A DNA stretch of 32,000 nucleotides from Megasphaera elsdenii DSM 20460 (lineage in GTDB: Bacteria; Bacillota; Negativicutes; Veillonellales; Megasphaeraceae). A program made the position numbers and the translations under genes. The notes below the pieces were generated by a model. That model was not told the origin of the DNA, searched no databases, and was given only the letters and a program-made list of their open reading frames with translations. The stretch lies in the NCBI RefSeq assembly GCF_003010495.1, contig NZ_CP027570.1:300001-332000 (forward strand). Reading direction: 5' to 3'. Of this stretch, positions 2,402 to 27,587 are shown in pieces; within the stretch, counting starts at the first letter, position 1; each line of letters starts with the position of its first letter.

Positions 2402-3223
2402 TTATTCTGGATACAGTTCTTTGTTCCGTTTTACGATTTCCATGACCAAGTTGGCCGTTTCTTCGATGGCCTTGGACGACACATCGATGATGGGACAATG
2501 GAGACGGCGCATGACGCCGCGGGCATATTCCAGTTCTTCATTGATCCGTTCGATGTTGGCATAGCTGGCATTGGCATCGAGGCCCATGCTGCGCAGGCGT
2601 TCAGACCGGATGAAGTTCAGCTTGAACGGGTCGATGATGAGGCCGACGATCTTGCGGGCCGGGATCTGGAACAATTCCGGCGGCAGGCTGACTTCCGGTA
2701 CCAGCGGCAGGTTGGCCGCTTTGATACGCTTATGAGCCAAGTACATAGAAAGGGGCGTCTTCGACGTACGCGATACGCCAACGATGACGATATCGGCCTT
2801 CAAGAAGCCCATGGGGTTCTTGCCATCGTCGTATTTGACGGCAAATTCAATGGCTTCGACGCGTTTGAAATACTCTTCGTCGAGCTGGTGGATCATGCCG
2901 GCTTTCAACGTCGGTTCCGTATCGGTCAAGGTGCCGACACCGGCCAGCATGGGGCCGATGATGTCGACGACGGTAACGTTGGCCGTCTTGGTCAGTTCCC
3001 GCAGCTTCCGGCGCAGGGATGGGGAAATGATCGTATAGCAGATCATGGCCTTGTTGGCTTCGGCTTTGCAGACCAGTTCTTCGATCTGCTGTTCCGACCG
3101 GATATACGGCACACGGATGATGTTAAATTCCTGTTTGTCATACTGGCTGGCTGCTGCCCGGGCCACGCGTTCGGCTGTTTCACCGAGCGAGTCAGAGCAA
3201 GCATAAATAATCGGTTTTTCCAC
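2402..3223 (-). CDS. ppsR: PEP synthase regulatory protein (bifunctional kinase/pyrophosphorylase, DUF299 family; B. subtilis YqfL type)
   Basis: Track ORF 2402..3247. It contains the P-loop GVSRTSKTP and the family-typical IIYACSDSLGETAE N-terminus. I prefer the GTG at 3223-3221, which has a strong GGGAGGAG SD 6 nt upstream and lies 2 nt after the ccpN stop. The ATG at 3247 would overlap ccpN by 22 nt. Confidence 0.85.
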   Translation of the reverse strand: MEKPIIYACSDSLGETAERVARAAASQYDKQEFNIIRVPYIRSEQQIEELVCKAEANKAMICYTIISPSLRRKLRELTKTANVTVVDIIGPMLAGVGTLTDTEPTLKAGMIHQLDEEYFKRVEAIEFAVKYDDGKNPMGFLKADIVIVGVSRTSKTPLSMYLAHKRIKAANLPLVPEVSLPPELFQIPARKIVGLIIDPFKLNFIRSERLRSMGLDANASYANIERINEELEYARGVMRRLHCPIIDVSSKAIEETANLVMEIVKRNKELYPE

Positions 3224-3225
3224 GG

Positions 3226-3864
3226 TTATCTCCTCCCTAACCCACATTCTACAAAGAGACGGGTTATGTTCGTTTTTGATATTCTGCCCAGGACCTTCAA
3301 TTCCTTCTTGTCATCTTCGTCAGTCCCTTTGACCTCGACGACGGGCAGGCAGTCGATTTCATATTCGATCAGGCGCTGAGCCGCGACGATCGCCTTTTCT
3401 TCTGGCTGGGCGTAAATCACCTTGCTCACAGGCGTCATGACCATGCGTACCGGCAGGGCCCGAAGGTCATTGCTGCCCATAGCGGTTTTCAATAAATCCT
3501 TTCGCGATACGACGCCGGCCAGGATATTGTCCGTCCCGACAAATACGGTCCCCACGTCTTCCGTAAACATGGCGATGATGGCATCGTAAGCACTCGTATG
3601 CTCGCCGACGATCACCGGCTGAGACAGGCAGGAATCAATGGTAATATCCGTAATAGCCCGTGAGAGCAGGTCTTTCTCTTTGTTGCCCGTAAAAAAATAG
3701 CCTAATTTCGGCCGCGCATCGATGAGCCCTAACATGGTCAAGATGGCCAGGTCCGAGCGCAAAGCTGCCCGCGTCACGTGGAGCCGGTTGGCAATATGCT
3801 GGCCCGTAATCGGACTGTTTTCCTTTACAATCTGTAAAATCGTTTCCTGACGTTCCGATAACAT
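3226..3864 (-). CDS. ccpN: CcpN-type transcriptional repressor of gluconeogenic genes (HTH plus two CBS domains)
   Basis: N-terminus RQETILQIVKENSPITGQHIANRLHVTRAALRSDLAILTMLGLIDARPKLGYFFTG closely matches remembered B. subtilis CcpN. CBS-like repeats follow. SD GGGGGTGA. It is immediately followed by the yqfL/ppsR homologue, as in Bacillus. Confidence 0.85.
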   Translation of the reverse strand: MLSERQETILQIVKENSPITGQHIANRLHVTRAALRSDLAILTMLGLIDARPKLGYFFTGNKEKDLLSRAITDITIDSCLSQPVIVGEHTSAYDAIIAMFTEDVGTVFVGTDNILAGVVSRKDLLKTAMGSNDLRALPVRMVMTPVSKVIYAQPEEKAIVAAQRLIEYEIDCLPVVEVKGTDEDDKKELKVLGRISKTNITRLFVECGLGRR

Positions 3865-3992
3865 AGCGTCTTTTCACCCCCTATATAGCAAGCGTTCTCT
3901 TATTCACTTATTATCATAACATATATAAAAACATCCCGCGATATAAGATGTATAATATGCAAATAGTGTATAATACAAGGCCGTAGTATGAG

Positions 3993-4036
3993 AAAAAGGC
4001 GGCCCAAAAGTCTGCTTTTCTTTTGGGACCGCCTTT
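3993..4036 (-). terminator. Intrinsic terminator of ppsA
   Basis: GGCGGCCCAAAAG / CTTTTGGGACCGCC stem (one mismatch) at 3998-4033. A5 at 3993-3997 gives the U-tract on the minus strand. Confidence 0.75.
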
Positions 4037-4069
4037 CTATTACTCATAAATCGGATATGCTATTACCAA

Positions 4070-6478
4070 TTACCACGTATAGTCTTCCGTATCAGCACGG
4101 CCCTTGCCTGTCAGCGAATCGAGGAGGATACGCTGTTCGACTTGTGCTACGTGTTTCCGTGTCGATACGACAGCGTCGGGGTTGACCGAGATGGAATCGA
4201 TGCCGCTCTTGACCAGAAATTCGGCGAAGTCCGGATAGACGCTCGGCGCCTGGCCGCAGATGGAAACGGTCTTACCGTCTTTGTGAGCAACCGTGATGAG
4301 ATGGCGGATAGCCCGTTTGACAGCCAGGTTGCGTTCATCGAAGAGCGGTGCGACTGTATCGTTGTCGCGGTCGCAGCCCATGACGAGCATGGTCAGGTCG
4401 TTGGAGCCGATGGAATAGCCATCGACGAACTGATTGAACTGGTCAGCCAGGATGATGTTGGCCGGGATTTCAGCCATGAGCCATACTTTGAAGTCCGGAC
4501 CGCGATGGAGGCCTTCCTGAGCCATGAGGTCGACGACTTTCTGCATTTCATCGACGCGGCGGCAGAAGGGAATCATGACGTTGAGGTTCTTGAAACCGTA
4601 TTCTTCACGGACTTTGCGGACGGCTTTCAATTCCAGTTTGAACGCTTCGACGTATTTCGGGTCATAGTAACGGGAAGCACCGCGCCAGCCGAGGAGGGCG
4701 CTGCTTTCCTGGGGTTCGTATTTATCACCGCCCGTCAGGTTGCGGTATTCACTCGATTTGAAGTCGCTCAGGCGCAGCGTGACCGGACGCGGAGCCAGTG
4801 CCTGGCAGACCTTGCGGATGCCTTCGGACAGCTGATCGACGACGTAGTCAGCCCGGCCCGTTTCGATGAGATACAAAGGATGTTCGTGAATGAACGTCGT
4901 CCAGATAAATTCTTCACGCATGAGGCCGATGCCATCGCAAGGCAGTTTGCCGTATTTTTCAGCCAGATCCGGGTTGCCCAGGTTCATGTAGATTTTCGTG
5001 CCCGTAATCGGTGCGGCTTCGGCAGCGACGACTGTCGTTGCAGCCTGGCCGGCCGGAGCTTCGGCAGCTTCCGGTTTGACGATGTCGGCGACGATGCCTT
5101 CATAGACGATGCCGTTCGTCGCATCGACCGTGATTTCTGCGCCATCTTGGATGGTCGTCGTCGCTTCGACGCTGCGGCTCTTCGTGCCGACGATGCAGGG
5201 GATGCCCAGTTCACGGCTGACGATGGAAGCGTGACAGGTCATGCCGCCGGCATCGGTGACGATAGCTTTGGCCTTCTTCATGGCCGGAACCCAGTCCGGT
5301 GCCGTCATGGTCGTTACCAGGATTTCGCCGTCTTTGAATTCAGCGATTTTAGCCGGGTCGAGGATGACATGAGCTTTGCCAGCGGCACTGCCCGGGCTGG
5401 CCGGCAGGCCTTTGACGACGACTTTGCGGTCCGTCGTGACAGCAGCCTTAGCGGCAGCAGCTTCTTTCTTTTCTTTATTCTTCTTGGACCAGACTGTTTC
5501 CGGACGGGCCTGGAGGAGCCATACCTTATTGGTCCGTTCATCGACGCCCCATTCCATATCCATGTAGCAGCCGTAATGTTTTTCAATGGCTTTGGCATAT
5601 GTAGCCAGTTCTTTGACCTGTTCGTCCGTAATGACCTGCTGTTTCTGCAGTTCCGGCGGAACGAGTTTTTCTTCGCAGTCACCGCCCGGTTTGCGGACCA
5701 GTTCAATCGGTTTGGTATTGATCATCTTGGAGAGGATGGTCAAGTCATCTTTGCGGACTTTGAAGTTATCCGGCGTAACCGTGCCCTGTACGACGTATTC
5801 GCCGAGGCCCCAGGCGCCTTCGATGGTAATCGTCGAATCGTCGCCCGTGACCAGGTCGACCGTGAACATGACGCCGGCGGCTTTGGAGAAGACCATCATC
5901 TGGATGGCGGCGCTCAAAGCGACGGAGAGATGATCGAAGCCCTGTTTCGTACGATAGTACGTAGCGCGGTCCGTAAAGGTCGATGCATAACATTCCTTGA
6001 CCTTCTGGATGACCATGTCAGCGCCCTGGACGTTGAGGTACGTGTCCTGCTGGCCGGCAAAGCTGGCATCAGGCAAATCTTCTGCCGTTGCACTGGAACG
6101 GACGGCGACGAAGGGATTGGCTTCGCCGACTTTCTTGCCCAATTCTTCATAACTCTTGCGGATGTCTGCTGCCAAATCAGCCGGCATTTCAGCATCGCAG
6201 ATTGCCTTGCGGATCTTAGCCGTGACATCGCGGAGCTGGACAGCGTCTTCGACGTCAGTCAGGCCTTTCAGCAATTCCGGGATGGTGACGTCCATGCCCG
6301 TTTCATGCATGAAATGACGATAGCCTTCTGCCGTCGTCGCAAACCCATAGGGAACGGGGACATCCGTCTGGGATGTCAATTCACCAAGGGAAGACGATTT
6401 CCCGCCTACGAGGGAAACATCAGCCCTGCGCAGTTCATCGAACCACAATACATATGCTTTTTCTCTGTCCTTTGCCAT
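4070..6478 (-). CDS. ppsA: Phosphoenolpyruvate synthase (pyruvate, water dikinase)
   Basis: 802 aa. N-terminus YVLWFDELRRADVSLVGGKSSSLGEL and SSATAEDLPDASFAGQQDT parallel E. coli PpsA. Phospho-His motif GGMTCHASIVSRELGIPCIVG. C-terminal PEP-utilising domain (SIGSNDLTMLVMGCDRDN). The size fits PpsA rather than PPDK. SD GCAGGAGGTAAGG. Confidence 0.93.
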   Translation of the reverse strand: MAKDREKAYVLWFDELRRADVSLVGGKSSSLGELTSQTDVPVPYGFATTAEGYRHFMHETGMDVTIPELLKGLTDVEDAVQLRDVTAKIRKAICDAEMPADLAADIRKSYEELGKKVGEANPFVAVRSSATAEDLPDASFAGQQDTYLNVQGADMVIQKVKECYASTFTDRATYYRTKQGFDHLSVALSAAIQMMVFSKAAGVMFTVDLVTGDDSTITIEGAWGLGEYVVQGTVTPDNFKVRKDDLTILSKMINTKPIELVRKPGGDCEEKLVPPELQKQQVITDEQVKELATYAKAIEKHYGCYMDMEWGVDERTNKVWLLQARPETVWSKKNKEKKEAAAAKAAVTTDRKVVVKGLPASPGSAAGKAHVILDPAKIAEFKDGEILVTTMTAPDWVPAMKKAKAIVTDAGGMTCHASIVSRELGIPCIVGTKSRSVEATTTIQDGAEITVDATNGIVYEGIVADIVKPEAAEAPAGQAATTVVAAEAAPITGTKIYMNLGNPDLAEKYGKLPCDGIGLMREEFIWTTFIHEHPLYLIETGRADYVVDQLSEGIRKVCQALAPRPVTLRLSDFKSSEYRNLTGGDKYEPQESSALLGWRGASRYYDPKYVEAFKLELKAVRKVREEYGFKNLNVMIPFCRRVDEMQKVVDLMAQEGLHRGPDFKVWLMAEIPANIILADQFNQFVDGYSIGSNDLTMLVMGCDRDNDTVAPLFDERNLAVKRAIRHLITVAHKDGKTVSICGQAPSVYPDFAEFLVKSGIDSISVNPDAVVSTRKHVAQVEQRILLDSLTGKGRADTEDYTW

Positions 6479-8842: not shown

Positions 8843-8874
8843 AAAAAGGCGCTGTCTTACGACAGCGCCTTTTT
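8843..8874. terminator. Bidirectional intrinsic terminator shared by the convergent PBP and CoA-transferase operons
   Basis: A5-GGCGCTGTC-TTAC-GACAGCGCC-T5, a perfect 9-bp stem. Confidence 0.8.
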
Positions 8875-8980
8875 AGTGGTTCGTAGTTAATGGCTCGTAG
8901 CTCGTGGTTCGTAGGGGCCGGCCCATTCGGGACACCTCTCCTAGCAGGAGAGGCTTACGAAGCCTTCGTGCGGCCTCCCC
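8875..8980. repeat. Intergenic modular repeat, copy R1 (C-type heptamer array plus hairpin modules; no second array)
   Basis: Heptamers GTGGTTC GTAGTTA ATGGCTC GTAGCTC GTGGTTC GTAGGGG at 8876-8917. Hairpins follow: CTCTCCT-agc-AGGAGAG (8936-8952) and AGGCTT-acg-AAGCCT (8951-8965). Confidence 0.8.
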
Positions 8981-9643: not shown

Positions 9644-9647
9644 GACC

Positions 9648-10394
9648 TCATCCCCTTTCCTGCCGTTCCCGCGCCTTGGCTTCGGCACGGGCCCTGGCCT
9701 TTTTCCACATCGGGCAGATAAACCGTTTTTCGCCCTGCCGTTCATAGACCATGTCGACGACAGGAGCCGGGATGGCGATTTCTTCCGGCAAGAGCTGGCC
9801 GACGGGGACGATTTCTTCGACTTCGGCGGCGACGAAATCAGCCGCATAAGCGATGGTACTGTTCGTCGCCCGCGAATTCATGCGGAAATAGAGGTTCCCT
9901 GCCGTATCGGCTTTGGTCGCCTTGACCAGGGCTACGTCGGCATGGAGCGGTAATTCCAGGAGATATTCCTTCCCATCGATGACCAGCTTCTGTTTCCCTT
10001 CTTCGACACTCGTACCGACACCGGTCGGCGTCAGGACGCCGCCCAGGCCGGCACCGCCGCAGCGCACGCGTTCGGCCCAGGTCCCCTGGGGGACGAATTC
10101 GACGGCCAGTTCACCGGCCAGCATCTGTTTCAGCGCTTCCGGATTGAGGCCGATATGCGTCGTAACGATGGACGACACGCGATGAGCCACGATCAGCTTG
10201 CCTACGCCCTGGCCGGGATAGCCGGCCGATACGGCGATGGCTTTGATATCCTTGACGCCTTTTTCCAGCATGCCGTCGATGATTTCATCAGCCGCGAATT
10301 GGCCATGCCAGTCACCGAACATGATGGTCTGTCCGTCATGGATATGCTCCAGGATATCTTGGAGAGAAAATACCTTCGATAACACCGTACTCAC
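9648..10394 (-). CDS. Family I CoA-transferase, subunit A (AtoD/ScoA/CtfA type) with a short basic C-terminal tail
   Basis: FVPQGTWAERVRCGGAGLGGVLTPTGVGTSVEEGKQ matches the AtoD core. The start is a GTG at 10394 or, more likely given GGGAG spacing, the GTG at 10385. Confidence 0.88.
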   Translation of the reverse strand: MSTVLSKVFSLQDILEHIHDGQTIMFGDWHGQFAADEIIDGMLEKGVKDIKAIAVSAGYPGQGVGKLIVAHRVSSIVTTHIGLNPEALKQMLAGELAVEFVPQGTWAERVRCGGAGLGGVLTPTGVGTSVEEGKQKLVIDGKEYLLELPLHADVALVKATKADTAGNLYFRMNSRATNSTIAYAADFVAAEVEEIVPVGQLLPEEIAIPAPVVDMVYERQGEKRFICPMWKKARARAEAKARERQERG

Positions 10395-10413
10395 TCCCTT
10401 TCAGAGGACAGCC

Positions 10414-11208
10414 TTACTGGCCGGTAAAATGGGGACGCCGTTTTTCCATGAACGCGCAGACGCCTTCGGCAAAGTCCTGGGTCCGGGCACATTCACGCTG
10501 GCACGGGACTTCGATGTTTTCCAGGTAGTGCTGATATTCAGCAAAAGCAGCGGCATAAATCTGGCGCTTGATGTTCTTATAGGAAATAATCGGTCCGGCA
10601 GCCAGTTTCTTGGCAAATTTCATCGTTTCTTCATCGAGGGCATCGTTGGGCACAATGCGGTAGACAATGCCCAGATCCTTGGCTTCCTGTGCGCTCACAG
10701 GGCGTCCGGTAGCGCAGATGTCCATGGCCCGTTTCGGCCCCAGCTGTTTGACCAGGAGATAGGAACCGCCCGTATCGGGGACCAGGCCCAGATTGACGAA
10801 GGCCATGATGAACTTGGCGTTTTCACTGCAAATGATGAAATCCGCTGTCAGGGCCAAACTGGCACCGGCACCGGCCGCAGCCCCGCTGACCGAGGCGATG
10901 ACCATCTTGCTCATCTTCTTCAGGCCATCCGTGACCTTGCCGACCTTGCCGATAAGGCCGTCCATATTGACATCGCCGCCGGCCTTGATGAGCTGGTAGA
11001 AGTAGCCGATATCGCCGCCGGCCGAAAAAGCACGGGGCAGCCCTTTGAAGACGACGACCTTTACCGATTCATCCGCTTCAGCCGCTTGGACGACATAAAG
11101 GAGTTCATCGGCCATTTCTTCATCGATGGCATTGAGGTTCGTCGGATAATCGAGCTGAACGACAGCGATGCCATCTTCAACGGTATAATGTAACTTGTTG
11201 AGTTTCAT
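10414..11208 (-). CDS. Crotonase-superfamily enzyme, PaaG-like (enoyl-CoA isomerase/hydratase family)
   Basis: SD GAGGAGGG. GAAAGAGASLAL...AKFIMAFVNLGLVPDTGGSYLL...DFAEGVCAFMEKRRPHFTGQ parallels remembered E. coli PaaG (GVAAGAGATLAL...AKFVMAFSKLGLIPDCGGTWLL...EGVSAFLAKRSPQFTGK). Confidence 0.85.
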   Translation of the reverse strand: MKLNKLHYTVEDGIAVVQLDYPTNLNAIDEEMADELLYVVQAAEADESVKVVVFKGLPRAFSAGGDIGYFYQLIKAGGDVNMDGLIGKVGKVTDGLKKMSKMVIASVSGAAAGAGASLALTADFIICSENAKFIMAFVNLGLVPDTGGSYLLVKQLGPKRAMDICATGRPVSAQEAKDLGIVYRIVPNDALDEETMKFAKKLAAGPIISYKNIKRQIYAAAFAEYQHYLENIEVPCQRECARTQDFAEGVCAFMEKRRPHFTGQ

Positions 11209-11310
11209 ATGAATCCCTCCTCATTATTATAACAAAAACGAATGAATACCTTTCTTTATAATCATATTATATCATAGGTTCCAGAAAAAAGCCTATACCA
11301 GAAAGGCATA

Positions 11311-11342
11311 AAAAAGGCGCTGTCTTACGACAGCGCCTTTTT
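11311..11342. terminator. Bidirectional terminator hairpin, identical to the one at 8843-8874
   Basis: Same A5-GGCGCTGTC-TTAC-GACAGCGCC-T5 structure. On the minus strand it lies downstream of the 67-aa ORF and upstream of the crotonase operon promoter region. Confidence 0.75.
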
Positions 11343-11493
11343 AGTGGTTCGTAGTTCGTGGCTCGTGTTCCCTACAAGGTTAAACCTCTCCGATCCAGTT
11401 GGACCACTTTTCCTAATAAGAGAACGAGTTTGCAATTTGCAGCGAATCCCTCAAATTTAAAACCATCCGCTAACAACTAACCACTAACCACTG
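11343..11493. repeat. Intergenic modular repeat, copy R2 (both arrays present; opposite orientation to R3)
   Basis: C-type heptamers GTGGTTC GTAGTTC GTGGCTC GTGTTCC at 11344-11371, then a variable interior. Next come TTTAAA...CCATCCGC (11463-11470) and inverse A-type heptamers TAACAAC TAACCAC TAACCAC (11471-11491). Confidence 0.8.
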
Positions 11494-11502
11494 GCTTTTT
11501 TA

Positions 11503-11706
11503 TCAATCTACGCAATACTGACAGAAGATGCCGCGGAGGTCGAAGCGGCGGCTTTCTTTTTCCTGACGGGCCGTTTCTTTCGGCTGGCCCATGGAAGCGA
11601 CGAGTTCCTGGCCGCGGCAGTAGATGCCTTCGCCGTTGGCAGCGCCGCTGATGGGCAGGGGCATCATGGTGTTGATCATATCATCAAAAGTAAAGTGTTT
11701 ATCCAT
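11503..11706 (-). CDS. Hypothetical small protein (67 aa) with a C-terminal CxxC
   Basis: Strong SD AGAGGAGG 7 nt before the ATG. No family recognised. Cys at 30, 62 and 65. Confidence 0.5.
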   Translation of the reverse strand: MDKHFTFDDMINTMMPLPISGAANGEGIYCRGQELVASMGQPKETARQEKESRRFDLRGIFCQYCVD

Positions 11707-11840
11707 TTGAAAAGCCTCCTCTGAAGATGCTCAAGTTTTTATTATCTTGCTTGAGCATAAGTTTACGCTTTTCAATGTCTTTTTGTCAATGCTAATCACG
11801 AATTACTTTTGCATTTCATCCATTCAATATTAGAATCGTT

Positions 11841-15064: not shown

Positions 15065-16271
15065 TGAAAGCGTGCAGATTGCCATTACGGCCCTGCTGTC
15101 CAATAAACTGCGCTCCATCCTGACCATGCTGGGCATCATCATCGGCGTCGGCGCCGTCATCGCCATGATTTCCATCGGCATGGGCGTCAAGCAGAACGTC
15201 ACCAACTCCATCGCCAGCCTGGGCAGCAATATGCTCATCGTTTCGCCAGGCTCGACCAATCACGGCGGCGTCCGTTCGGCAGCCGGTTCGAGCCAGAAAT
15301 TGAAATACGACGACGCCGTAGCCATCAAGAATAAAATAAAGAACATCGACTACGTATCGCCGACAGTCAACAGTTCCTACCAGATTGTCAACGGCAACCA
15401 GAACTGGAATACGTCGGTCTACGGCGTCACGCCAGAATACCTGCACATCCGGTCCCTCGTCGTCCAGTCGGGATCCTTCATCACCCAGAGCGACCTCAAC
15501 TCGCGCAACCGCGTCGCCGTCATCGGCCCGACGGTCGCCGCCAACCTCTTCGACGAAGTCAATCCCGTTGGCAAGAACATCCGCATCAACAACCAGCCCT
15601 ATAAGATCATCGGCGTCCTGGAAAGCAAAGGCCAGTCCTCCATGGGCCAGGACCAGGACGACATCGTCATCGTCCCCTTGACGACGGCCCAGGAACGCCT
15701 CATGGGCATCACCTACGTCCGCTCCATCAACATCCAGGTCTCCAGCGCCGATAAAATCGAACAGGTCCAGGCCGAAGTCGAAACGCTCCTGCGCCAGCGC
15801 CACCATATCCGCAGCGGCAGCGAAGATGACTTCACCGTCCGTAACCTGACGAGCCTCATGGAAACCATGACCAGCACGACGACCATGCTGACCCTCTTCC
15901 TGGGCAGTATCGCCGCCATTTCGCTCATCGTCGGCGGCATCGGCATCATGAACATCATGATGGTCTCCGTCACTGAACGGACGCGGGAAATCGGCATCCG
16001 GAAAGCCCTGGGCGCAACTTTTCAGAACATTATGATGCAGTTTCTCATCGAATCTGTCGTCATCGGCGTCATCGGCGGCCTCCTGGGCATCGCCTGCGGC
16101 GTCGGCATCGCCCTGGCTATCGCCAAGTCCGGCCTGTTCCAGACGGTCATCACGGCGGCGCCGATCATCATCTCTTTCAGTTTCTCCGTAGGCATCGGCC
16201 TCTTCTTCGGCATCTACCCAGCCCGGAAAGCAGCCAAGCTCGACCCCATCGAAGCCTTGCGGTATGAATAA
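15054..16271 (+). CDS. ABC transporter permease (FtsX/MacB-type, with a large extracytoplasmic domain)
   Basis: The track ORF 14964..16271 starts inside the ATPase gene. The likely start is the ATG at 15054 (MLFSESVQIAITALLSNKLRS...), with SD AAAGGGGG and an 11-nt overlap with the ATPase stop. It has TM1, then a ~230-aa loop, then three TM segments with an FtsX signature region. Confidence 0.88.
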   Translation: MLFSESVQIAITALLSNKLRSILTMLGIIIGVGAVIAMISIGMGVKQNVTNSIASLGSNMLIVSPGSTNHGGVRSAAGSSQKLKYDDAVAIKNKIKNIDYVSPTVNSSYQIVNGNQNWNTSVYGVTPEYLHIRSLVVQSGSFITQSDLNSRNRVAVIGPTVAANLFDEVNPVGKNIRINNQPYKIIGVLESKGQSSMGQDQDDIVIVPLTTAQERLMGITYVRSINIQVSSADKIEQVQAEVETLLRQRHHIRSGSEDDFTVRNLTSLMETMTSTTTMLTLFLGSIAAISLIVGGIGIMNIMMVSVTERTREIGIRKALGATFQNIMMQFLIESVVIGVIGGLLGIACGVGIALAIAKSGLFQTVITAAPIIISFSFSVGIGLFFGIYPARKAAKLDPIEALRYE

Positions 16272-16307
16272 AAAAAGGGCTTGTCACATGACGACAAGCC
16301 CTTTAAA
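16271..16307 (+). terminator. Terminator hairpin after the permease gene
   Basis: A6-GGGCTTGTC-acatgac-GACAAGCCC-TTTAAA. The stem is perfect, but the T-tract is short. Confidence 0.6.
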
Positions 16308-16545
16308 GTTGTTAGTGGCTAGCAGTTAGTTGTTAGCGGATGGCTTTAAAGCTGTAGCGGGCGTCCCGGCTCTCCTGCTAGGAGAGCTGTCAGCGCAGCT
16401 GACTGAGAGGTTGAATCTGGAAATTCAACCTCTCCGGCCCATTGGGCCACCTCCCCTATCAGGGGAGGCTTGGCGCTCTGCAATCGGCGGGCCGCCCCTA
16501 CGAGCCACGAACCACTAGCCACTAGCCACGAGCCACGAGCCACTA
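16308..16545. repeat. Intergenic modular repeat, copy R3 (archetype)
   Basis: The left side has A-type heptamers GTTGTTA GTGGCTA GCAGTTA GTTGTTA (16308-16335), then GCGGATGG and the palindrome GCTTTAAAGC. Five consecutive perfect hairpins follow between 16370 and 16468. The right side has CCCCTAC and then inverse heptamers GAGCCAC GAACCAC TAGCCAC TAGCCAC GAGCCAC GAGCCAC (16502-16543). Confidence 0.85.
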
Positions 16546-17064
16546 ATCTCTCAGCCAGCGGCGGATGTCGTCTTCGGCATCTTCGATGGTCGTACCCAGG
16601 AGGGCCAGGCTCTTGCCGAGTTTGGCCGTCGGGCAGAGGGCATGGATGTCTTCCAGACTGTGGCCGACGCCGCTGCCTTCATGGGTGCAGAAAGGATAAA
16701 TCGTCTTATCCGTGAAGTCGTGGTTTTCCAGGAACGTCCACAAAGCCATGGGCATGGTGCCGCACCAGTTGGGATAGCCCAGGAAGATGACGTCGTAATC
16801 ATCGATGCTGTCGATATCCCTTTCCAGGACCGGCCGGGCGTTGTCGGCCTTTTCTTTCTTGGCGATCTTGACGACTTCCTGATAGTCATTGGGATAGACC
16901 GAAGCCGTGCGGATGTGGAAGAGGTCGCCGCCCGTGAACAGGCGCAGCATCTGTGCCGCCCGTTCCGTATTGCCCACGGGCAGGTCGACGATCTTACCGC
17001 TGACATAGTTCATGCCGGCGTGTGAAAAATATGCAATGAGGCATTTCTTACCTTGATAATCCAT
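16543..17064 (-). CDS. Flavodoxin-family protein
   Basis: 173 aa. SD GGGAGG. It has CLIAYFSHAGMNY, FLGYPNWCGTMP and PFCTHEGSG motifs, typical of short flavodoxin-like FMN proteins. Confidence 0.8.
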   Translation of the reverse strand: MDYQGKKCLIAYFSHAGMNYVSGKIVDLPVGNTERAAQMLRLFTGGDLFHIRTASVYPNDYQEVVKIAKKEKADNARPVLERDIDSIDDYDVIFLGYPNWCGTMPMALWTFLENHDFTDKTIYPFCTHEGSGVGHSLEDIHALCPTAKLGKSLALLGTTIEDAEDDIRRWLRD

Positions 17065-19647: not shown

Positions 19648-19666
19648 AAAAAAAGGGGCTGTAACA
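19648..19666 (+). terminator. Left half of the ychF terminator hairpin, apparently split by an IS insertion
   Basis: A7 followed by GGGGCTGTAACA. The exact reverse complement TGTTACAGCCCC followed by T5 lies at 21525-21541. Confidence 0.5.
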
Positions 19667-19685
19667 GAATAGCCTCATCTAAAAA

Positions 19686-19716
19686 ATGGACTCAGTTATC
19701 TGAGCCCATTTTTTTT
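19686..19716 (+). terminator. Intrinsic terminator inside the IS left end, facing inward
   Basis: ATGGACTCAG-ttat-CTGAGCCCAT followed by T8 (19709-19716). A second hairpin, AGAGGCCC-caaa-GGGCCTCT, lies at 19724-19743. Confidence 0.65.
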
Positions 19717-19747
19717 AAGCAAAAGAGGCCCCAAAGGGCCTCTTTGC

Positions 19748-19756
19748 TGGTATAAT
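19748..19756 (+). promoter_or_regulatory. Extended -10 promoter (TGgTATAAT) of the transposase gene
   Basis: The hexamer ends 7 nt before the A of the ATG at 19763. No SD lies between them, which implies a leaderless mRNA. Confidence 0.45.
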
Positions 19757-19762
19757 TATTGT

Positions 19763-21382
19763 ATGCCAAACAAAATCAACCACGTAAAGTATACCAAAAC
19801 TTACACTCCGAGGCAACTCGTTTTGCCATTGGATTATGGCATTTCACTAGAACAAGATCGGTTGGTTTGTATCGTAGATGCATTATTAGAAAGGTTGGAT
19901 TATTCAGCATTACAGCATCTCTACTCTGTTAAAGGCAGAAATCCTAAGGTACCGCCCAAGATCTTGTTCAAAGTGAGGGTCTTTGCTGCAGCCCAGGGCG
20001 TATATTCCCTGCGCAGTATCAGCGAACAATGCCGTGTCAATATAGAATATATGTGGTTGCTGGAAGGGTATCCGGCTCCCAGCCACATGACGTTTGGCCG
20101 TTTCTTTCACCGGATTCCCATAGAAGTGCTCCGCCATTTGTTTGCCCAGTTTGTGCATCAACTGTCTTTGCTGGATTCCGTAGATTTTACAGAATGGTAT
20201 ATTGATGGGACCAAGATGGAAGCCAACGCGAACCGCTATACGTTTGTCTGGCGCAAGCGAGTGGAAAAAGGGATCGCTAAGCTAAAGGAAAAACGGCGGC
20301 AAATCCAGGAACAGATGCTAGCTTTCACGGGCATGGATACCTGTACACTGGATGACGATGAATTACTCCGGTCTGCCGCAGACGTATGCCAAGGAAACGG
20401 CATCACATTCGTGCAAGGGTCTGGCCACCGAAAAACAGTCGAACAAAAACTATTTGAAGAAGTGGCAGCCATCCGGGAGAAACAGCAAGAATATGATGCC
20501 CACCTGACCATACTGGGCACACGGAACAGTTATTCCAAGACCGATCCCGATGCTACATTTATGCGCATGAAAGAAGACCACATGAAAAACGGGCAGCTGA
20601 AGCCGGCCTACAATCTTCAGTTAGCCGTACAGTCTGAATATATTATCGGACTGGGTCTATTCCCGAATCCAACAGATACCCGGACCTTGATCCCGTTTTT
20701 GACGGCATTGGAATCAGAGTATGGAAGACTGGCAGATCATATCGTGGCGGATGCCGGATATGACAGTGAAGAGAATATGGACTGGATAGAAAAGAAAGGA
20801 AGCACGGTATGCATCAAGCCACGGGAGTATGAATACCGGAAGACGTCTGCCTTCAAGAAAAAAATCGGGCACCGAAGCAATATGGCCTATGACGCAGACA
20901 GCGATACCTATACCTGTGCCAAAGGAAGGAAGCTGCATTTCATAACGGAAAAAAAGCAGCGCGATAGGGCCAGCGGATATGAACGGACCGTACGAATTTA
21001 CCAATGTGAAAACTGTCAGTATTGTGGAAAACGGAATCAATGCCAGCCGACCCGTACAGGAAAGAAACCAACACAGAATAAAATGGTACAGTACAATCCT
21101 TACTACCAATCCTTATTGGACAGGGACTACGACTTCATTCATAGTGAAAAAGGAATCCAGTTGCGGATTAACCGCTCCATACAGATAGAAGGGGCGTTTG
21201 GAACAGTAAAGGGAAACTACGAATACCGCCGAGTGAGACATAAGGGAAAAGAAAGTGTAGAAAAGGAACTGTTGTTCATGGCATTCGGCTTTAATCTGAG
21301 AAAATACCGAAGTCGCCGGGATACGGACCGATTACAACAACACTATTTAGAAAAAGAAGAAACACATACAGTAGCCTGCTAA
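19763..21382 (+). CDS. IS1182-family DDE transposase
   Basis: The N-terminal region (GRNPKVPPKILFKVRVFAAAQGVYSLRSISEQC...MWLLEG) looks like a DUF772-type transposase N-terminus. It also has YIDGTKMEANAN, ADAGYDSEEN, a Cys-rich insert CAKG...CENCQYCGKRNQC, and a C-terminal GAFGTVKGNYEYRRVRHKG...LLFMAFGFNLRKY. Confidence 0.8.
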   Translation: MPNKINHVKYTKTYTPRQLVLPLDYGISLEQDRLVCIVDALLERLDYSALQHLYSVKGRNPKVPPKILFKVRVFAAAQGVYSLRSISEQCRVNIEYMWLLEGYPAPSHMTFGRFFHRIPIEVLRHLFAQFVHQLSLLDSVDFTEWYIDGTKMEANANRYTFVWRKRVEKGIAKLKEKRRQIQEQMLAFTGMDTCTLDDDELLRSAADVCQGNGITFVQGSGHRKTVEQKLFEEVAAIREKQQEYDAHLTILGTRNSYSKTDPDATFMRMKEDHMKNGQLKPAYNLQLAVQSEYIIGLGLFPNPTDTRTLIPFLTALESEYGRLADHIVADAGYDSEENMDWIEKKGSTVCIKPREYEYRKTSAFKKKIGHRSNMAYDADSDTYTCAKGRKLHFITEKKQRDRASGYERTVRIYQCENCQYCGKRNQCQPTRTGKKPTQNKMVQYNPYYQSLLDRDYDFIHSEKGIQLRINRSIQIEGAFGTVKGNYEYRRVRHKGKESVEKELLFMAFGFNLRKYRSRRDTDRLQQHYLEKEETHTVAC

Positions 21383-21524
21383 AAAAAGAAAAAACAGCAA
21401 GGCTTATTAAAGTACGCCTAAAAACAGATAGCTGGCATTTTTCACGAAAATGAAAAATGCCAGCTATTGTGTTAGTTATGGGAAAGAAAGAAGACTGCAA
21501 CAAAATGAGCTAAAAAGCTCATTT

Positions 21525-21541
21525 TGTTACAGCCCCTTTTT
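21525..21541 (+). terminator. Right half of the split ychF terminator hairpin
   Basis: TGTTACAGCCCC plus T5, followed directly by a heptamer array. The intact terminator/array junctions at 8870, 11338 and 16302 show the same layout. Confidence 0.5.
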
Positions 21542-21543
21542 AA

Positions 21544-21634
21544 GTGGTTAGTGGCTAGCAGTTAGGGGTTAGCGGATGGGTTTTAAATTTAAAAACCATC
21601 TGCTACAAACTACAAACTCCGTACTACAAACTAG
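21544..21634. repeat. Intergenic modular repeat, copy R4 (compact, nearly palindromic)
   Basis: GTGGTTA GTGGCTA GCAGTTA GGGGTTA, then GCGGATGG, then GTTTTAAATTTAAAAA, then CCATCTGC, then TACAAAC TACAAAC TCCGTAC TACAAAC TAG. Confidence 0.8.
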
Positions 21635-22020: not shown

Positions 22021-23430
22021 TTAGCCGATTTCTACTAATTTTCCAGGATTCATGATGTTATTCGGGTCCAAAGCCTTCTTGATGGCTTTAATGACGTTAA
22101 GTTCCGCCTGCGGTGTGCAAAGGGCAAATTCTTCTAATTTTTTATAGCCAATGCCGTGTTCACCGGACATCTTGCCGCCCAGGGCATAGACGCGCGGGAA
22201 GAGGTCGCGATGGAAGGCTTTGATCTTCTGGAACCATTCTTCCGGCGACAAGCCTTTGGCATTCAGAGGCAGGACGTGGATGTTACCATCGCCGATGTGA
22301 GCAACCGTGACGCAGTAGAGGTCGTATTTTTCGCGCAGTTCCGGAATCTGTTTGGTGATTTCCGGAATCTTGTCCAAGGGGACGACGAAGTCTTCCGTCT
22401 GGAACATCTTGTCAACGTCGCGGGCGGCTTCGGCGAACTGCTTGCGCAGAGTCCAAATCCGTTTATCCGCTTCAAATTCGTCGATCGAGCCGTTGGCTTC
22501 CGCCAAGTCGCAGAGCTGTTCCATCTTGCGGTCCGAGTCGTCTTCGCTGAACGATTCGACCGTGACGATGACGTAATCACAGCCTTCGTCGACATGAGGC
22601 ATTTTCATGTCCAGGAATTTGCAGGTCATGCGCAGGGCTTCATTGTCCATAAATTCGATGCTCGTCGGGTCGATGCCGGCTTTGAGGATCTTATTGGGCA
22701 GGGCAAAGGCTTCTTCATCGGTCTTGAAAACGCAGACCATATTGAAGGCATACGGCGGCATGGGACGGAGTTTGACCGTGACTTCCGTAATGATGCCCAG
22801 CGTGCCTTCGGAACCGGCAAAGAGCTGTTCCAGGCAGAGGCCGGTAGAACTCTTCTTGAGGCGGGCACCGGCGTCGAGGATGTCCCCTGTCGGCGTAACG
22901 ACTTTCAGGCTGTAGATCTGATGGCGCGTCGTGCCGTATTTAACGGCTTTATTGCCGCCGGCATTGTTGGCGACGTTGCCGCCGATCATGCTGCTGTCGG
23001 CACTGGACGGGTCCCCGGCATAGAGGAGGCCGTGTTTGGCAGCTTCACGCTGCAAGTCCCCAGTGATGACGCCAGTCTGGCAGACGGCATACATATTGTC
23101 GGCATCGAATTTGAGGATCTGATTCATCCGTTCCAATTCGACGACCATGCCGTGATAAACAGGAATAGCACCACAGGCAACACCGGAACCAGCCGAGCGC
23201 GGCGTAATCGGAACGAGGTACTTATTGGCCAATTTGACGATAGCGGCCACTTCTTCCGTCGAGCCCGGGAAGACGACGACTTCCGGTTTATGGAAATAAT
23301 GGGAGTTCCCTTCTTCGTCTGTCTGGTATCTTTCCAAATAATCTTCGTCCGTCTTGACGTATTTATCACCGACGACCTGACGTAATTCTGCTAATAATTC
23401 CGGCGTAACCGGGTTAAACTGTGCTGCCAT
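22021..23430 (-). CDS. FAD-binding oxidoreductase of the GlcD / D-lactate dehydrogenase family
   Basis: 469 aa. PCMH-type FAD-binding domain (VVFPGSTEEVAAIVKLANKYLVPITPRSAGSG, GDPSSADSSMIGGNVANNAGG). C-terminal FAD-oxidase_C region ending ALDPNNIMNPGK. Confidence 0.88.
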   Translation of the reverse strand: MAAQFNPVTPELLAELRQVVGDKYVKTDEDYLERYQTDEEGNSHYFHKPEVVVFPGSTEEVAAIVKLANKYLVPITPRSAGSGVACGAIPVYHGMVVELERMNQILKFDADNMYAVCQTGVITGDLQREAAKHGLLYAGDPSSADSSMIGGNVANNAGGNKAVKYGTTRHQIYSLKVVTPTGDILDAGARLKKSSTGLCLEQLFAGSEGTLGIITEVTVKLRPMPPYAFNMVCVFKTDEEAFALPNKILKAGIDPTSIEFMDNEALRMTCKFLDMKMPHVDEGCDYVIVTVESFSEDDSDRKMEQLCDLAEANGSIDEFEADKRIWTLRKQFAEAARDVDKMFQTEDFVVPLDKIPEITKQIPELREKYDLYCVTVAHIGDGNIHVLPLNAKGLSPEEWFQKIKAFHRDLFPRVYALGGKMSGEHGIGYKKLEEFALCTPQAELNVIKAIKKALDPNNIMNPGKLVEIG

Positions 23431-23513
23431 ATATAAACGCTTCCTTTCTATCGGAATCTTTCCGTATGCTTTAAAGATATAATAAGTTTATCCTCCGAAT
23501 GGGAGTTGAGCAT

Positions 23514-23541
23514 AGTATACCACGTAGCAGAAACTTGTAAA
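23514..23541 (-). promoter_or_regulatory. Candidate promoter of the FAD-oxidase gene
   Basis: On the minus strand: TTTACA (23541-23536), 16-nt spacer, TGgTATACT (23522-23514). Confidence 0.45.
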
Positions 23542-23589
23542 GCCCGTTTTCTTGACATTTTTAAAAAATGCATCAAGAAAACGGGCTTT
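23539..23589. terminator. Long hairpin downstream of the ABC-F gene
   Basis: Perfect 17-bp arms AAAGCCCGTTTTCTTGA / TCAAGAAAACGGGCTTT. The T-tract is better on the plus strand than on the minus strand. Confidence 0.55.
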
Positions 23590-23692
23590 TTGAAACCACA
23601 CATCGGGATGGATACGTAAAGTTTTACGTTTTACGCTATTTCCAATCCTAAAGTTTATATTTATTTTTCATATCTTCCATGCACGGACAGTT

Positions 23693-25784: not shown

Positions 25785-26047
25785 CCTCGGACTCAGATGC
25801 GGCTTCGCCGCGTCAATTTCATGATTGTATTACGACCATGTGCCATCTGTCATAAATTCCGGCTATGTACAGGATTCACAGCGGTACGCCCTTTGGGCGT
25901 CCCCTACGGTATCGCATAGAGGCGATGAAAATGAACGCAGGTCGCATTCGCAGATGGCAGGCCGTAAAAAAATACACGGCCTGCGGCCGTTTCGTAGGGG
26001 TTTCCACGTGGGAAGCCCGCTAGAGAGATTGGTGTTAGCATATAAAT
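25785..26047. repeat. Intergenic modular repeat region R6 (hairpin modules, no clear heptamer array)
   Basis: Module CCTCGGACTCAGATGCGGCTTCGCCGC (25785-25811) and module GGGCGTCCCCTACGGTATCGCATAGAGGCGATGAAAATGA (25895-25934) both recur at 27428-27557. It also carries hairpins GCAGGCCGT...ACGGCCTGC and a CGTAGGGG motif. Confidence 0.7.
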
Positions 26048-26109
26048 AGGACAAGTCAAACTGAGGTTCCTAATGGTGGTACAATAGGATTAACTAAGGA
26101 GGCCTCAGT

Positions 26110-26391
26110 ATGGCAAAATTCAACAAAGAATTCAAAATCAACGCAGTTAAATATTATCATGAACATCGGGAACTCGGCTTGGTTGGCTGTGCTACGAATC
26201 TAGGTATTGCTCCACAAACCTTGTCCCGTTGGCAAAAGCAGCTGAAGGACAATGGCGAAATGCCTTATCGTGGTTCCGGCAACTATGCTTCGGATGAAGC
26301 TAAGGAAATCGCCCGTCTGCAGCGTGAACTGCGGGATGCGAAGGATGCGTTGAATGTCCTAAAAAAAGCTATCAGCATTCTGGACAAATGA
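26110..26391 (+). CDS. IS3-family transposase OrfA (HTH)
   Basis: SD AAGGAGG. 93 aa with an HTH (LVGCATNLGIAPQTLSRWQKQ) and a leucine-zipper-like C-terminus. Confidence 0.88.
   Translation: MAKFNKEFKINAVKYYHEHRELGLVGCATNLGIAPQTLSRWQKQLKDNGEMPYRGSGNYASDEAKEIARLQRELRDAKDALNVLKKAISILDK
26361..26368 (+). promoter_or_regulatory. Programmed -1 ribosomal frameshift site (A7G) joining OrfA to OrfB
   Basis: orfA reads CTA AAA AAA GCT. A -1 slip on A AAA AAA enters the orfB frame at 26367 (AGC TAT CAG...), upstream of the orfB ATG at 26388. Confidence 0.7.
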
Positions 26392-27302
26392 CCATTGCCA
26401 TCTATCGCAGTGTCCAGGAAGAAGCCGAAAATGCCCATCAGGCAGAACGTCGTTTTTCGGTGTCCGGAGTGCTTTCTGAACTCGACGTTTCTTCTTCAGG
26501 ATATTATGACTGGGCGGCGCGCAAACCATCGAAACAGGCCCAGCACCGCAAGGAGATGAAGAAAAAGATTCAAACTATCTACGACGATTCCAAGCAGATT
26601 TACGGAGCCCCGAAGATTGCCCAAGTTATGCAGCAGAACGGGGACAGTATCTCTGAACGCACAGTTGGCGTATACATGCGGCAAATGGGCATTCAGGCCT
26701 GCTGGGTAAAGCATTACACCGTAACGACCCGTAACAGTGACTTTGACGTGGCGCTGGTGAATATCCTTCAGGAATGCTTCAATCCTGAAGAACCGGATCA
26801 AGTATGGTGCAGCGACATCACCTATATCTGGACAGCTGAAGGTTTCGTCTATTTGGAAAGCATTATGGATTTGTTCTCCAGGAAAATCATCGCCTGGAAT
26901 CTGGCCCGTAATCTGGACGTCGCCGGCATCGTCAAGATGCTGCAGGAAGCCAAACAATGCCGGAAACCCGGACAGCTGTTGGTTATCCATTCGGACCGTG
27001 GCTGCCAGTATGTTTCGCAGGCATATATTCGGGAGACATCCCAAATGCGCCGCAGCTATTCGAAGAAAGGCTATCCATGGGACAATGCCTGCATCGAATC
27101 CTTCCACTCCCTGATTAAACGGGAATGGCTCAATCGCTTCAAGATTCAAAATTATCAGCAAGCGTACTTGTTGGTGTTTGAATACATCAATACCTTTTAC
27201 AACACCGTACGCATTCATAGCCATTGCAACTACATGTCACCGGATGACTATGAAAAGCTGTATGCTGATTTCCAGAAACATAATATGCGTCTGGGAATCT
27301 AA
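26388..27302 (+). CDS. IS3-family transposase OrfB (rve/DDE integrase core), probably made as an OrfAB fusion
   Basis: WCSDITYIWTAEG, VIHSDRGCQYVS and DNACIESFHSLIKREW give the DDE triad context. It overlaps the orfA end in the -1 frame. Confidence 0.88.
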   Translation: MTIAIYRSVQEEAENAHQAERRFSVSGVLSELDVSSSGYYDWAARKPSKQAQHRKEMKKKIQTIYDDSKQIYGAPKIAQVMQQNGDSISERTVGVYMRQMGIQACWVKHYTVTTRNSDFDVALVNILQECFNPEEPDQVWCSDITYIWTAEGFVYLESIMDLFSRKIIAWNLARNLDVAGIVKMLQEAKQCRKPGQLLVIHSDRGCQYVSQAYIRETSQMRRSYSKKGYPWDNACIESFHSLIKREWLNRFKIQNYQQAYLLVFEYINTFYNTVRIHSHCNYMSPDDYEKLYADFQKHNMRLGI

Positions 27303-27392
27303 GAAACGAAAAACCTCAATTTAATTTGTCCGAAATCTTGACATAGGACCAGATTTCACCACAGCCTAGCCGAGTATAATGGCTTTTTTTAC

Positions 27393-27587
27393 GAGCTACG
27401 AACCACGAACAACGAGCCACGGCTTTTCCTCGGATTCAGATGCGGCTTCGCCGCTATAAACTCAAACTAACAACGACGCTTCGGGAAACCCTCTGCGCGT
27501 AGCGGGACGCCTTAACAGGACGTCCCCTACGATATCGCATGGAAGCGAAGAAAATGATAAGACAAACGCAAAAATAGCCGCCTATCG
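27393..27587. repeat. Intergenic modular repeat region R5
   Basis: Inverse C-type heptamers GAGCTAC GAACCAC GAACAAC GAGCCAC (27393-27420), then the two modules shared with R6 (27428-27454 and 27518-27557). It also has the hairpin GGGACG...CGTCCC. Confidence 0.75.

Follow-up and report, generated by a model that had tools for sequence, protein, structure and literature searches.

What is the densely repetitive stretch that separates two convergent genes at positions 16272–16545 of the window analysed here, 32,000 nucleotides (nt) from the Megasphaera elsdenii DSM 20460 genome (contig NZ_CP027570.1, positions 300,001 to 332,000; 99.99% identical over 20.7 kb to HE576794.1, likewise from M. elsdenii strain DSM 20460, and encoding an ABC ATPase whose exact sequence is also found on M. 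elsdenii contigs)? To its left lies a MacB/FtsX-type permease gene on the plus strand, with its stop codon at 16271, and to its right a flavodoxin gene on the minus strand (16543–17064). A first-pass annotation had described the stretch as a modular intergenic repeat, in which inverted arrays of tandem heptamers enclose a string of mini-hairpins. We find that the element is a non-coding nested palindromic mosaic, and we put at roughly two in three the probability that it is one composite copy of a genome-wide family of extragenic palindromes in Megasphaera, similar to the repetitive extragenic palindromes (REPs) and bacterial interspersed mosaic elements (BIMEs). We show that this family is abundant, that its stems carry compensatory variation, that its copies lie mostly after genes, and that its arrays and modules vary by strain. 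Four kinds of palindromic unit would be nested or juxtaposed in it: a terminator-like hairpin between an A-tract and a T-tract, GC-rich REPs tagged with GTAG, double-hairpin units (DHUs) tagged with AACCTCTC, and an AT-rich palindrome tagged with GCGG. The heptamer arrays, for their part, appear not to be independent termini, but to read as tandem GTRG + YTM, with the first four bases of the same kind as the REP tag.

The anatomy of the element can be followed from left to right. Directly after the permease stop codon stands a bidirectional terminator-like hairpin (16274–16304), consisting of an A-tract, GGGCTTGTCAC...GACAAGCCC and a T-tract; read from 16304 to 16274 it scores as terminator-like on the minus strand, with 14 pairs. 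An A-type heptamer array of four units (GTTGTTA GTGGCTA GCAGTTA GTTGTTA; 16308–16335, plus strand) reads away from this terminator and into what we call the A-core (16336–16352, plus strand), composed of GCGGATGG (16336–16343) and the AT-rich palindrome GCTTTAAAGC (16343–16352). The A-core is one half of the palindrome GCGG-ATGGnTTTTAAA/TTTAAAAnCCAT-CTGC, of which a whole version is found at 21572–21602. Next comes a REP-like half, GTAGCGGGCGTCCCGG (16354–16369, plus strand), which in predicted folds pairs with 16486–16501 around the hairpin string; for comparison, an intact REP followed by the same hairpin string is found at L325 9497–9600 (L-numbers denote the loci and strains compared). Two inverted DHUs account for all five mini-hairpins: a minus-strand unit (16369–16412; AACCTCTCA - GTCAGC..GCTGAC - A - GCTCTCCT..AGGAGAGC), whose architecture is shared by about 22 copies, spans the first two hairpins and the left arm of the third, and a plus-strand unit (16427–16469; AACCTCTCC - GGCCC..GGGCC - A - CCTCCCCT..AGGGGAGG) spans the right arm of the third together with the fourth and fifth. 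The third hairpin itself arises from pairing of the DHU tags TGAGAGGTT and AACCTCTCC, and the loop that separates the two inverted tags (16413–16426) shows a 7-nt indel polymorphism in four of seven strains. Beyond the plus-strand DHU, a linker leads to a minus-strand GTAG tag and stem half (GTAGGGGCGGCCCGCC, 16486–16501; on the plus strand its complement includes CCCCTAC at 16495–16501), which forms the inner end of a C-type array of six units (GTGGCTC twice, GTGGCTA twice, GTGGTTC, GTGGCTC; 16502–16543, minus strand, period 7 in Tandem Repeats Finder). The outermost right heptamer overlaps the flavodoxin stop codon, CTA at 16543–16545 being TAG on the minus strand, and shares its first base with it. 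The parts listed by the first-pass annotation, namely the left heptamers, GCGGATGG, GCTTTAAAGC, the five hairpins (16370–16386, 16389–16403, 16405–16434, 16436–16448 and 16450–16468), CCCCTAC and the six inverse heptamers, all stand at the coordinates that it gave them.

To ask how widely these modules are shared, we compared the window with 13 further 21-kb regions retrieved via identical copies of two of its insertion sequences (ISs), for a total of 274,437 nt of non-redundant M. elsdenii DNA, or about 11% of the 2.47-Mb genome. Every module of the element is found at 4–16 other loci of this sample, which bears out the earlier proposal of a modular, genome-wide intergenic family. Segments of 74–92 nt spanning hairpin, array and core are common to unlinked loci at 85–96% identity; the hairpin and array of the element recur at L237 6929–7002 (96% over 74 nt) and at another locus in strain L003 (97.5% over 80 nt). 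The pattern (GTDGYTM)x3 gives eight matches in the window and none in 100 shuffles, and a looser three-unit pattern finds 40 heptamer arrays of 3 to 11 units in the sample, compared with 0.9 in shuffles. GTAGGGG occurs at 81 sites, 60 of them with a hairpin of -14 kcal/mol or better directly after; permuted motifs yield 0–1 such cases, and random 29-mers 21 in 4000 (0.5%). Together with about 22 DHUs and 8 A-cores, these counts scale to some 360 arrays, 540 tagged hairpins and 200 DHUs per genome, figures that are extrapolations and not a full count. The junction motifs GCGGATGG and GTAGGGG close arrays both across the sampled genome and in other Megasphaera species, and a scan of species genomes revealed the same order of terminator hairpin, T-tract, A-type array, GCGGATGG and TTTAAATTTAAA in three other members of the genus. 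It is therefore scarcely credible that local microsatellites and ordinary terminators merely look alike by accident, with no repeat family behind them. Tandem heptamers are admittedly common in bacteria and phages: GTDGYTM x4 occurs in 110 viral stretches and at least 120 times in species genomes from many phyla, and a scrambled unit occurs in 73 viral stretches. The shared segments, the recurring junctions and the excess of arrays nevertheless refute that explanation.

Searches of other collections returned little. No copy of the repeat matches any Rfam family, whether by gathering score or at E = 1 or below, and plasmid records contain no match to the repeats. Among phage records, three unannotated human-faecal "Bacteriophage sp." contigs match the interior hairpins only. 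One IMG/VR contig (L108) bears modules of Megasphaera type: a (GTGGCTC)n array and, after it, the conserved GTAAAAAC..ATTATACTCGAAAAGGCTGTGATGAAA stretch of the X-type element described below. This "viral" contig probably comes from a Megasphaera prophage, or else is a fragment that was mis-binned.

The likeness to REPs and BIMEs that had been suggested for the element is most apparent in the tagged palindromes in which C-type arrays end. These have the form C-GTAG-GGG-x1x2x3 ... y3y2y1-CCC-GC, and the stem triplets, tallied over 53 distinct copies, are CCG/CGG (30), ACG/CGT (12), CTC/GAG (4) and CGC/GCG (2), with CTT/AAG, ATT/AAT and TCG/CGA once each and two G–T variants. All nine of these combinations pair, seven of them by Watson–Crick rules, and none is unpaired. 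REPs also occur as dimers, 11 head-to-head, 11 tail-to-tail and 3 head-to-tail, and in longer clusters: at L327 11293–11923, seven REPs of alternating orientation follow one another with a period of about 211 nt in a BIME-like manner. This cluster and another tandem BIME-like alternating cluster, at L324 9393–11700, flank what is probably an rRNA operon, a region without called genes whose sequence we judged to be 23S-like. The DHUs are a second family of tagged palindromes, in which the tag AACCTCTC(C/A) is followed by hairpin 1, an A and hairpin 2; at least seven different stems occur in hairpin 1, each of them fully complementary. The two kinds of palindrome can also occur together within a gene, as at L243 3990–4260, where two tandem copies of a GTAG REP plus DHU, about 129 nt apart, lie inside the called mutL open reading frame (ORF; 2996–5077), in the linker between the N-terminal and C-terminal domains.

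How, then, are the heptamer arrays related to these palindromes? The commonest units are GTGGCTC (47), GTGGTTC (36), GTGGCTA (21), GTGGTTA (17), GTTGTTA (10) and GCAGTTA (7), and GTGG occupies positions 1–4 in 121 of 165 units; judged from these letters, the unit amounts to a conserved GTRG-like tetranucleotide plus YT(C/A). Because the GTAG tag of REPs is on record with the variants GTGG and GYRG (PMC3733652), the arrays can be read as tandem tag-like tetranucleotides, each with a 3-nt linker. C-type arrays lead straight into the GTAG tag of a REP. A-type arrays meet the AT-rich palindrome at its tag-like beginning, GCGG. Without exception the array lies on the tag side, its G-rich strand pointing to the palindrome. 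Like minisatellites, the arrays change in length by entire units, gained or lost. The C-type array at 16502–16543 is a variable-number tandem repeat with 3, 5, 5, 6, 6, 7 and 9 units across seven strains, among which the interior of the element is constant except for the one 7-nt indel and the A-type array at 16308–16335 keeps its unit number in all seven. Unit number varies in four of the seven arrays of the window among the same strains. Many array units contain TAG; at the flavodoxin gene and in one allele of ftsH, an array abuts or supplies the stop codon.

Several other features of heptamer arrays were observed alongside these. M. elsdenii has further heptamer families (TTGATGT/ATCAAAC, AGTTTGA, ACAAACT and GTTCATC; at L237 20480–20560, L240 6190–6290, L240 3290–3340 and window 21603–21634), which likewise form inverted arrays around AT-rich cores or adjoin terminator hairpins. 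In other phyla (loci L007–L236), inverted GTDGYTM partners less than 200 nt apart have the complement downstream of the G/T-rich array at 19:1 in genomes and 16:0 in viral contigs (7:1 for the scrambled control unit); inverted heptamer pairs thus have a steady polarity, the G/T-rich arm coming first in the 5' to 3' sense on either strand. The idea of a universally special GTGGTTA-type heptamer was rejected, since the scrambled unit is about as common and, in other phyla, the arrays lie no closer to hairpins than do those of the control.

The position of the copies and their folding bear on what the element might do. By crude ORF calls, 16 arrays lie between convergent genes, 14 in tandem spacers near a 3' end, 7 in tandem spacers near a 5' end and 1 in a divergent spacer, while REPs number 34 tandem, 12 convergent and 6 divergent. 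Gene 3' ends are therefore nearby for 30 of the 40 arrays, a bias toward 3' spacers. Predicted folds of the 281-nt element have energies of -147 and -144 kcal/mol and z scores of -8.5 (minus strand) and -9.2 (plus strand) relative to dinucleotide shuffles; in them the arrays form an outer stem and the two GTAG halves the next, with the hairpins within a multiloop. Since the sole strong terminator available to the flavodoxin gene is the hairpin at 16274–16304, at the opposite end of the element, the whole element is most probably the flavodoxin 3' untranslated region (UTR), as far as sequence and terminator prediction can tell. It would then give the flavodoxin mRNA a highly structured 3' UTR of about 270 nt ending at a shared bidirectional terminator, and might act as a block for termination and insulation, and as a barrier to 3' exonucleases, between the convergent permease and flavodoxin genes. 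The Shine–Dalgarno and anti-Shine–Dalgarno look-alikes that had been pointed out in several hairpin stems are a resemblance of letters, as are a DnaA-box similarity at 6 of 9 positions, a two-tetrad G-quadruplex potential of (GGTTAGT)n and Rho-utilization (rut)-like C-rich strands.

Structure this strong raises the possibility that the element, or part of it, is a gene for a structured noncoding RNA or the source of a small RNA derived from the 3' UTR, with its hairpins kept for an RNA function. The compensatory changes in REP and DHU stems, G–T pairs included, would fit such a role, as would the conserved promoter-like, TATAAT-containing segment that faces the array in X-type copies and lies at about 27376 in the window. 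We nevertheless consider it improbable: module content and order vary from copy to copy and, at one locus, from strain to strain; copies occur in both orientations relative to neighbouring genes; Rfam gives no match even at E = 1 or below; and hundreds of copies with freely recombined modules are a better fit to selfish palindromes. A similarly slim chance attaches to the proposal that the arrays are bound by a multimeric protein that recognizes RNA or DNA in a 7-nt register, and that the element is a cis-regulatory device for its neighbours. Candidate readers of such a register are HutP-like proteins, on RNA of the form (UAGNNNN)n, and omega-type ribbon-helix-helix proteins, on 7-bp DNA heptads. 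The arrays do present TAG or GAG every 7 nt on one strand or the other, lie in the predicted transcribed 3' UTR of the flavodoxin gene and offer heptads both direct and inverted; the omega heptad, which we take to be WATCACW, would agree with AACCACT at 6 of 7 positions. A regulatory site is hard to reconcile, however, with 3 to 9 units between near-identical strains, with an extrapolated 360 or so arrays per genome beside unrelated genes, with C-type units (GUGGCUC) that lack UAG, and with arrays that are truncated or lost while the flanking genes stay unchanged; nor has any candidate protein been identified.

The remaining copies in the window show how the modules of the REP/BIME-like family are combined and how they differ between strains. 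The first-pass annotation had named four further loci that follow one grammar: an A-type array, GCGGATGG-TTTAAA, a variable interior and an inverse C-type array. All four exist, and the grammar is real, occurring in three other Megasphaera species as well, but it is one of several arrangements. The copy at 8843–8980 (plus strand), formerly read as a one-armed version, is related but consists of a C-type array, a GTAG tag and hairpins only: a terminator hairpin (8848–8869), a five-unit C-type array (8876–8910), a GTAGGGG tag at 8911 and a partial DHU (8920–8953). In strains L003 and L006 this locus has two units plus an extra 93-nt REP-flanked module. At 11311–11493 we find a terminator hairpin (11316–11337), a C-type array (11344–11364, plus), a degenerate DHU (11383–11425), an A-core (11456–11470, minus) and an A-type array (11471–11491, minus); strain L003 has a different composite of 528 nt instead, part of which matches the left module of the element at 16272 with 97.5% identity. 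The terminator hairpins at 8848–8869 and 11316–11337 are identical, and therefore the "terminator", which had been taken as a separate structure against which the repeat sits, is itself part of the repeated unit. The compact copy at 21544–21634 comprises an A-type array (21544–21571), a whole core palindrome (21572–21602) and an inverse array of the ACAAACT type (21603–21634), and most of it has been lost from strain L003 through a 78-nt deletion. The fourth locus, formerly bounded at 27393–27587, lacks the A-core grammar and is a different composite, which we call X-type (27393–27530, minus strand): its C-type array (27393–27420) is embedded in a longer repeated, REP-flanked body that ends in a canonical GTAG REP (27502–27530), and five copies of this body have conserved sequence on both sides of the array. 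A scan for GTAGGGG hairpins adds two further tagged REP hairpins at 25881–26020 (25881–25907 minus, 25994–26020 plus), with their tags inside.

Whole modules are thus swapped between loci and alleles across strains. A separate instance is the 3' end of ftsH, where two alleles (L237 20430–20640 versus L244 8037–8290, the latter also in L239) carry unrelated elements, part company about 25–35 nt before the stop codon and rejoin about 150–200 nt later. One allele has an inverted pair of TTGATGT-type heptamers around TAAATTTAAA; the other has an array of GTGGCTA/GTGGCTC units, the first of which provides the TAG stop codon, and hairpin units come after this array.

Two ISs of the window lie among these repeats. 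The first, an IS1182/IS5-like element of 1878 bp (19657–21534; transposase 19763–21382; ends GGGGCTGTAACAG / CTGTTACAGCCCC), also occurs in L237 and L240–L245 at 9895–11772. At eight of eight independent sites it lies between an A-tract and a T-tract just past a stop codon, its flanks being inverted complements (AAAAA|TTTTT, AAAAT|ATTTT, GAA|TTC) without direct duplication, and a heptamer array follows it in six of the eight. In strains free of the IS, the window locus reads GAAAAAAAGG-CTTGTCGCATATGCGACAAG-CCTTTTTAAG, so the IS replaces the top of the terminator hairpin. The second is of the IS3 family (26031–27350; orfA 26110–26391, orfB 26388–27302; in L324–L329 at about 9644–10962). It splits the X-type repeat of the window, which is intact in strains L001, L002 and L006; all but one of its seven copies in the type-strain genome have REPs, DHUs or heptamer arrays no more than 100 nt away, to one side or to both, a proximity that recalls the REP/BIME-specific IS3-family elements IS1397 and ISKpn1.

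The association with the IS1182/IS5-like element invites the view that the repeat is a miniature inverted-repeat transposable element (MITE) derived from a DDE-type IS, moving by cut and paste, with the inverted arrays serving as subterminal transposase-binding repeats as in Ac/Ds and En/Spm. Arrays do lie inverted at both ends of the element; in six of eight independent insertions one IS end plus a T-tract directly adjoins an array whose reading direction is away from the IS; and the outermost 8 nt at either end of the IS (GGGGCTGT/ACAGCCCC) are identical to the base of some array-side terminator-like hairpins (for example, GGGGCTGTCGCATGTGCGACAGCCCC in L326). Against these points, no target-site duplication flanks the elements, at any copy or polymorphic site; boundaries are variable, and one-armed copies are common (8875 and many others); array length at a fixed locus depends on the strain; strains without the IS at a given locus have the arrays there all the same; and the inverted repeats of the IS, GGGGCTGTAACAG among them, are unrelated to the heptamer unit. 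We regard such an origin as quite unlikely.

For the REP/BIME-like family, we favour a mechanism in which the units spread as single-stranded hairpins through a Y1/HUH enzyme resembling the REP-associated tyrosine transposases (RAYTs), and/or through recombination and gene conversion between copies, while array length may change by slipped-strand mispairing beside stable hairpins. One could go further and propose that the arrays are a by-product and record of such processing of the palindromes. The proposal is prompted by a unit that consists of a GTRG tag and a 3-nt linker, and by arrays that always lie on the tag side and read toward the hairpin; repeated cleavage and rejoining, or slippage stalled by the hairpin at the tag, would copy the tag over and over until a minisatellite resulted. 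We offer this as a conjecture, and one that is probably wrong as it stands.

A number of results weigh against our interpretation. Only 8 of the 60 canonical REPs have two or more array units directly on the tag side, so arrays must be optional. In other phyla, GTDGYTM arrays stand beside hairpins no more often than does the scrambled control, which makes the link between tag and array specific to Megasphaera. Among the strain differences that we compared, none is a precise pair of empty and filled sites with a transposition signature, and all of them could be explained by deletion, slippage or recombination. No gene for a RAYT or other Y1 transposase (PF01797) appears in the Pfam annotation of the loci sampled, which cover about 11% of the genome, and a tblastn search of about 0.4 Mb of Megasphaera DNA with E. 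coli RayT (NC_000913.3) gave no match. The only transposases in the window are those of the two ISs, with no cognate enzyme for the repeats; as to protein relatives of E. coli RayT, 2920 matches were obtained, and the 120 listed are all from Enterobacteriaceae.

Two observations on other mobile or structured features may be recorded here. Short ORF remnants similar to TnpB (Cas12f1-like_TNB) occur at L328 1200–1650, where the adjacent stretch is a run of N, and at L321 6839–7267, and therefore IS200/IS605-family elements are present now, or were formerly, in M. elsdenii. In the window, the Rfam tp2 small RNA family has a sub-threshold match at 23511–23623 on the minus strand (E = 0.0098; 36.6 bits, the gathering score being 50). 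The match lies in the leader that precedes an FAD-linked oxidase gene (22021–23430, minus), and there is a promoter-like site at 23541–23514.

The repeats fill many 3' intergenic spacers of M. elsdenii while remaining invisible in standard annotation, and they reshape gene ends, in that they contribute to the stop codons of flavodoxin and of one ftsH allele and have copies within the mutL linker. They are targets of two ISs and hypervariable between strains, and therefore provide ready markers for metagenomic typing of this probiotic and rumen species; thousands of metagenomic contigs, matched in 5165 blocks, carry the locus. They also link REP tags physically with heptamer minisatellites, and this link is open to testing. 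If the arrays were indeed a record of RAYT-like processing, Bacillota would gain a first described REP/RAYT-type system, one easily studied through the thousands of strain variants present in metagenomes, and two old puzzles would be joined, the multiplication of REPs and the origin of heptamer arrays of the cyanobacterial kind discussed below.

Which known systems does the family resemble? A literature search found no description of it, either in this bacterial group or with heptamer arrays at the edges. The pneumococcal BOX, RUP and SPRITE elements and the Correia elements of Neisseria share its modular boxes, hairpin potential and intergenic location, but the Megasphaera repeats are not known to match them in sequence or architecture; BOX consists of A-B-C boxes and is not known to include tagged palindromes, and a Correia element is bounded by terminal inverted repeats of 26 nt, with duplication of TA. 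Much closer is the GTAG-tagged REP superfamily: short (20–40 bp) stem-loops with an unpaired GTAG or GYRG at one end, subfamilies that differ by complementary stem residues, and more than 100 copies per genome, for the most part on the downstream side of coding regions, in spacers where the adjacent ORFs converge or run in the same direction (PMC3733652). In E. coli (REP/BIME), Pseudomonas (REP/REPIN) and Stenotrophomonas (SMAG), as in Megasphaera, the units are GC-rich stem-loops with an unpaired GTAG at one end. The Megasphaera repeats share these features: the tagged stem-loop, subfamilies with compensatory stem changes, hundreds of copies per genome by extrapolation, and a location mostly downstream, in spacers between convergent or co-directional ORFs. 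In BIMEs, REPs of alternating orientation are separated by conserved linkers and often repeated in tandem; the head-to-head and tail-to-tail dimers of Megasphaera, the alternating REPs of L327 and the conserved sequence beside the array in the five X-type copies agree with this, and REPs inside repair genes, such as those in the mutL linker at L243 3990–4260, have been recorded in other phyla (PMC3733652). The stem GGG-NNN...NNN-CCC-GC is likened to the 24 families of the published survey by architecture and not by stem sequence (PMC3733652). In the REP/REPIN–RAYT system, a single-copy gene for the RAYT (TnpA_REP, a Y1 HUH transposase) is flanked by cognate REPs (PMC2817692; PMC3116915). Unlike the REPs surveyed in 2013 by Di Nocera et al., which come from Proteobacteria, Cyanobacteria, Chloroflexi and the Planctomycetes–Verrucomicrobia–Chlamydiae (PVC) group (PMC3733652), in a text that mentions neither Firmicutes nor Megasphaera (PMC3733652), those described here have a Negativicute (Bacillota) as host, so that the GTAG-type REP/BIME architecture is extended to Negativicutes; their tag side, moreover, is often prolonged into tandem tag-like heptamers.

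It is this last feature that connects the family with tandem heptamers, and here the view that 7-nt array termini are novel needs qualification. The short tandemly repeated repetitive (STRR) sequences of cyanobacteria, reportedly described by Mazel in 1990, have the units CCCCAAT, TTGGTCA and CAACAGT. The Megasphaera arrays resemble them, and heptanucleotide long simple sequence repeats (LSSRs), in being intergenic tandems of 7-nt units with variable copy number, often able to form hairpins via inverted arrays. The resemblance is one of form only, STRRs in the strict sense being cyanobacterial. Unlike STRRs, which are stand-alone arrays of filamentous cyanobacteria, the Megasphaera arrays are physically attached to tagged palindromes and to terminator hairpins, with which they travel, and their units are GTGGYTM. 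The TAACTGA direct repeats of Beggiatoaceae, Cyanobacteria and Bacteroidetes, too, are abundant intergenic heptamers, whose reverse complement TCAGTTA agrees with the minor Megasphaera unit GCAGTTA at 6 of 7 positions; they lie just upstream of start codons, where they have been proposed to control translation (PMC4679880), whereas the Megasphaera arrays lie mainly past stop codons and adjoin palindromes. Tandem heptamers are thus a described class (PMC2670836, PMC4679880): STRRs are 7-bp repeats able to form hairpins, with no known function (PMC2670836), and heptanucleotides are the commonest LSSRs in many genomes according to Mrazek 2007, as related in PMC4679880. What has neither an Rfam match nor a description in the literature searched is the Megasphaera family as a whole: the heptamer arrays themselves were already known, and what is new is their physical coupling to tagged palindromes, together with the host group in which it occurs.

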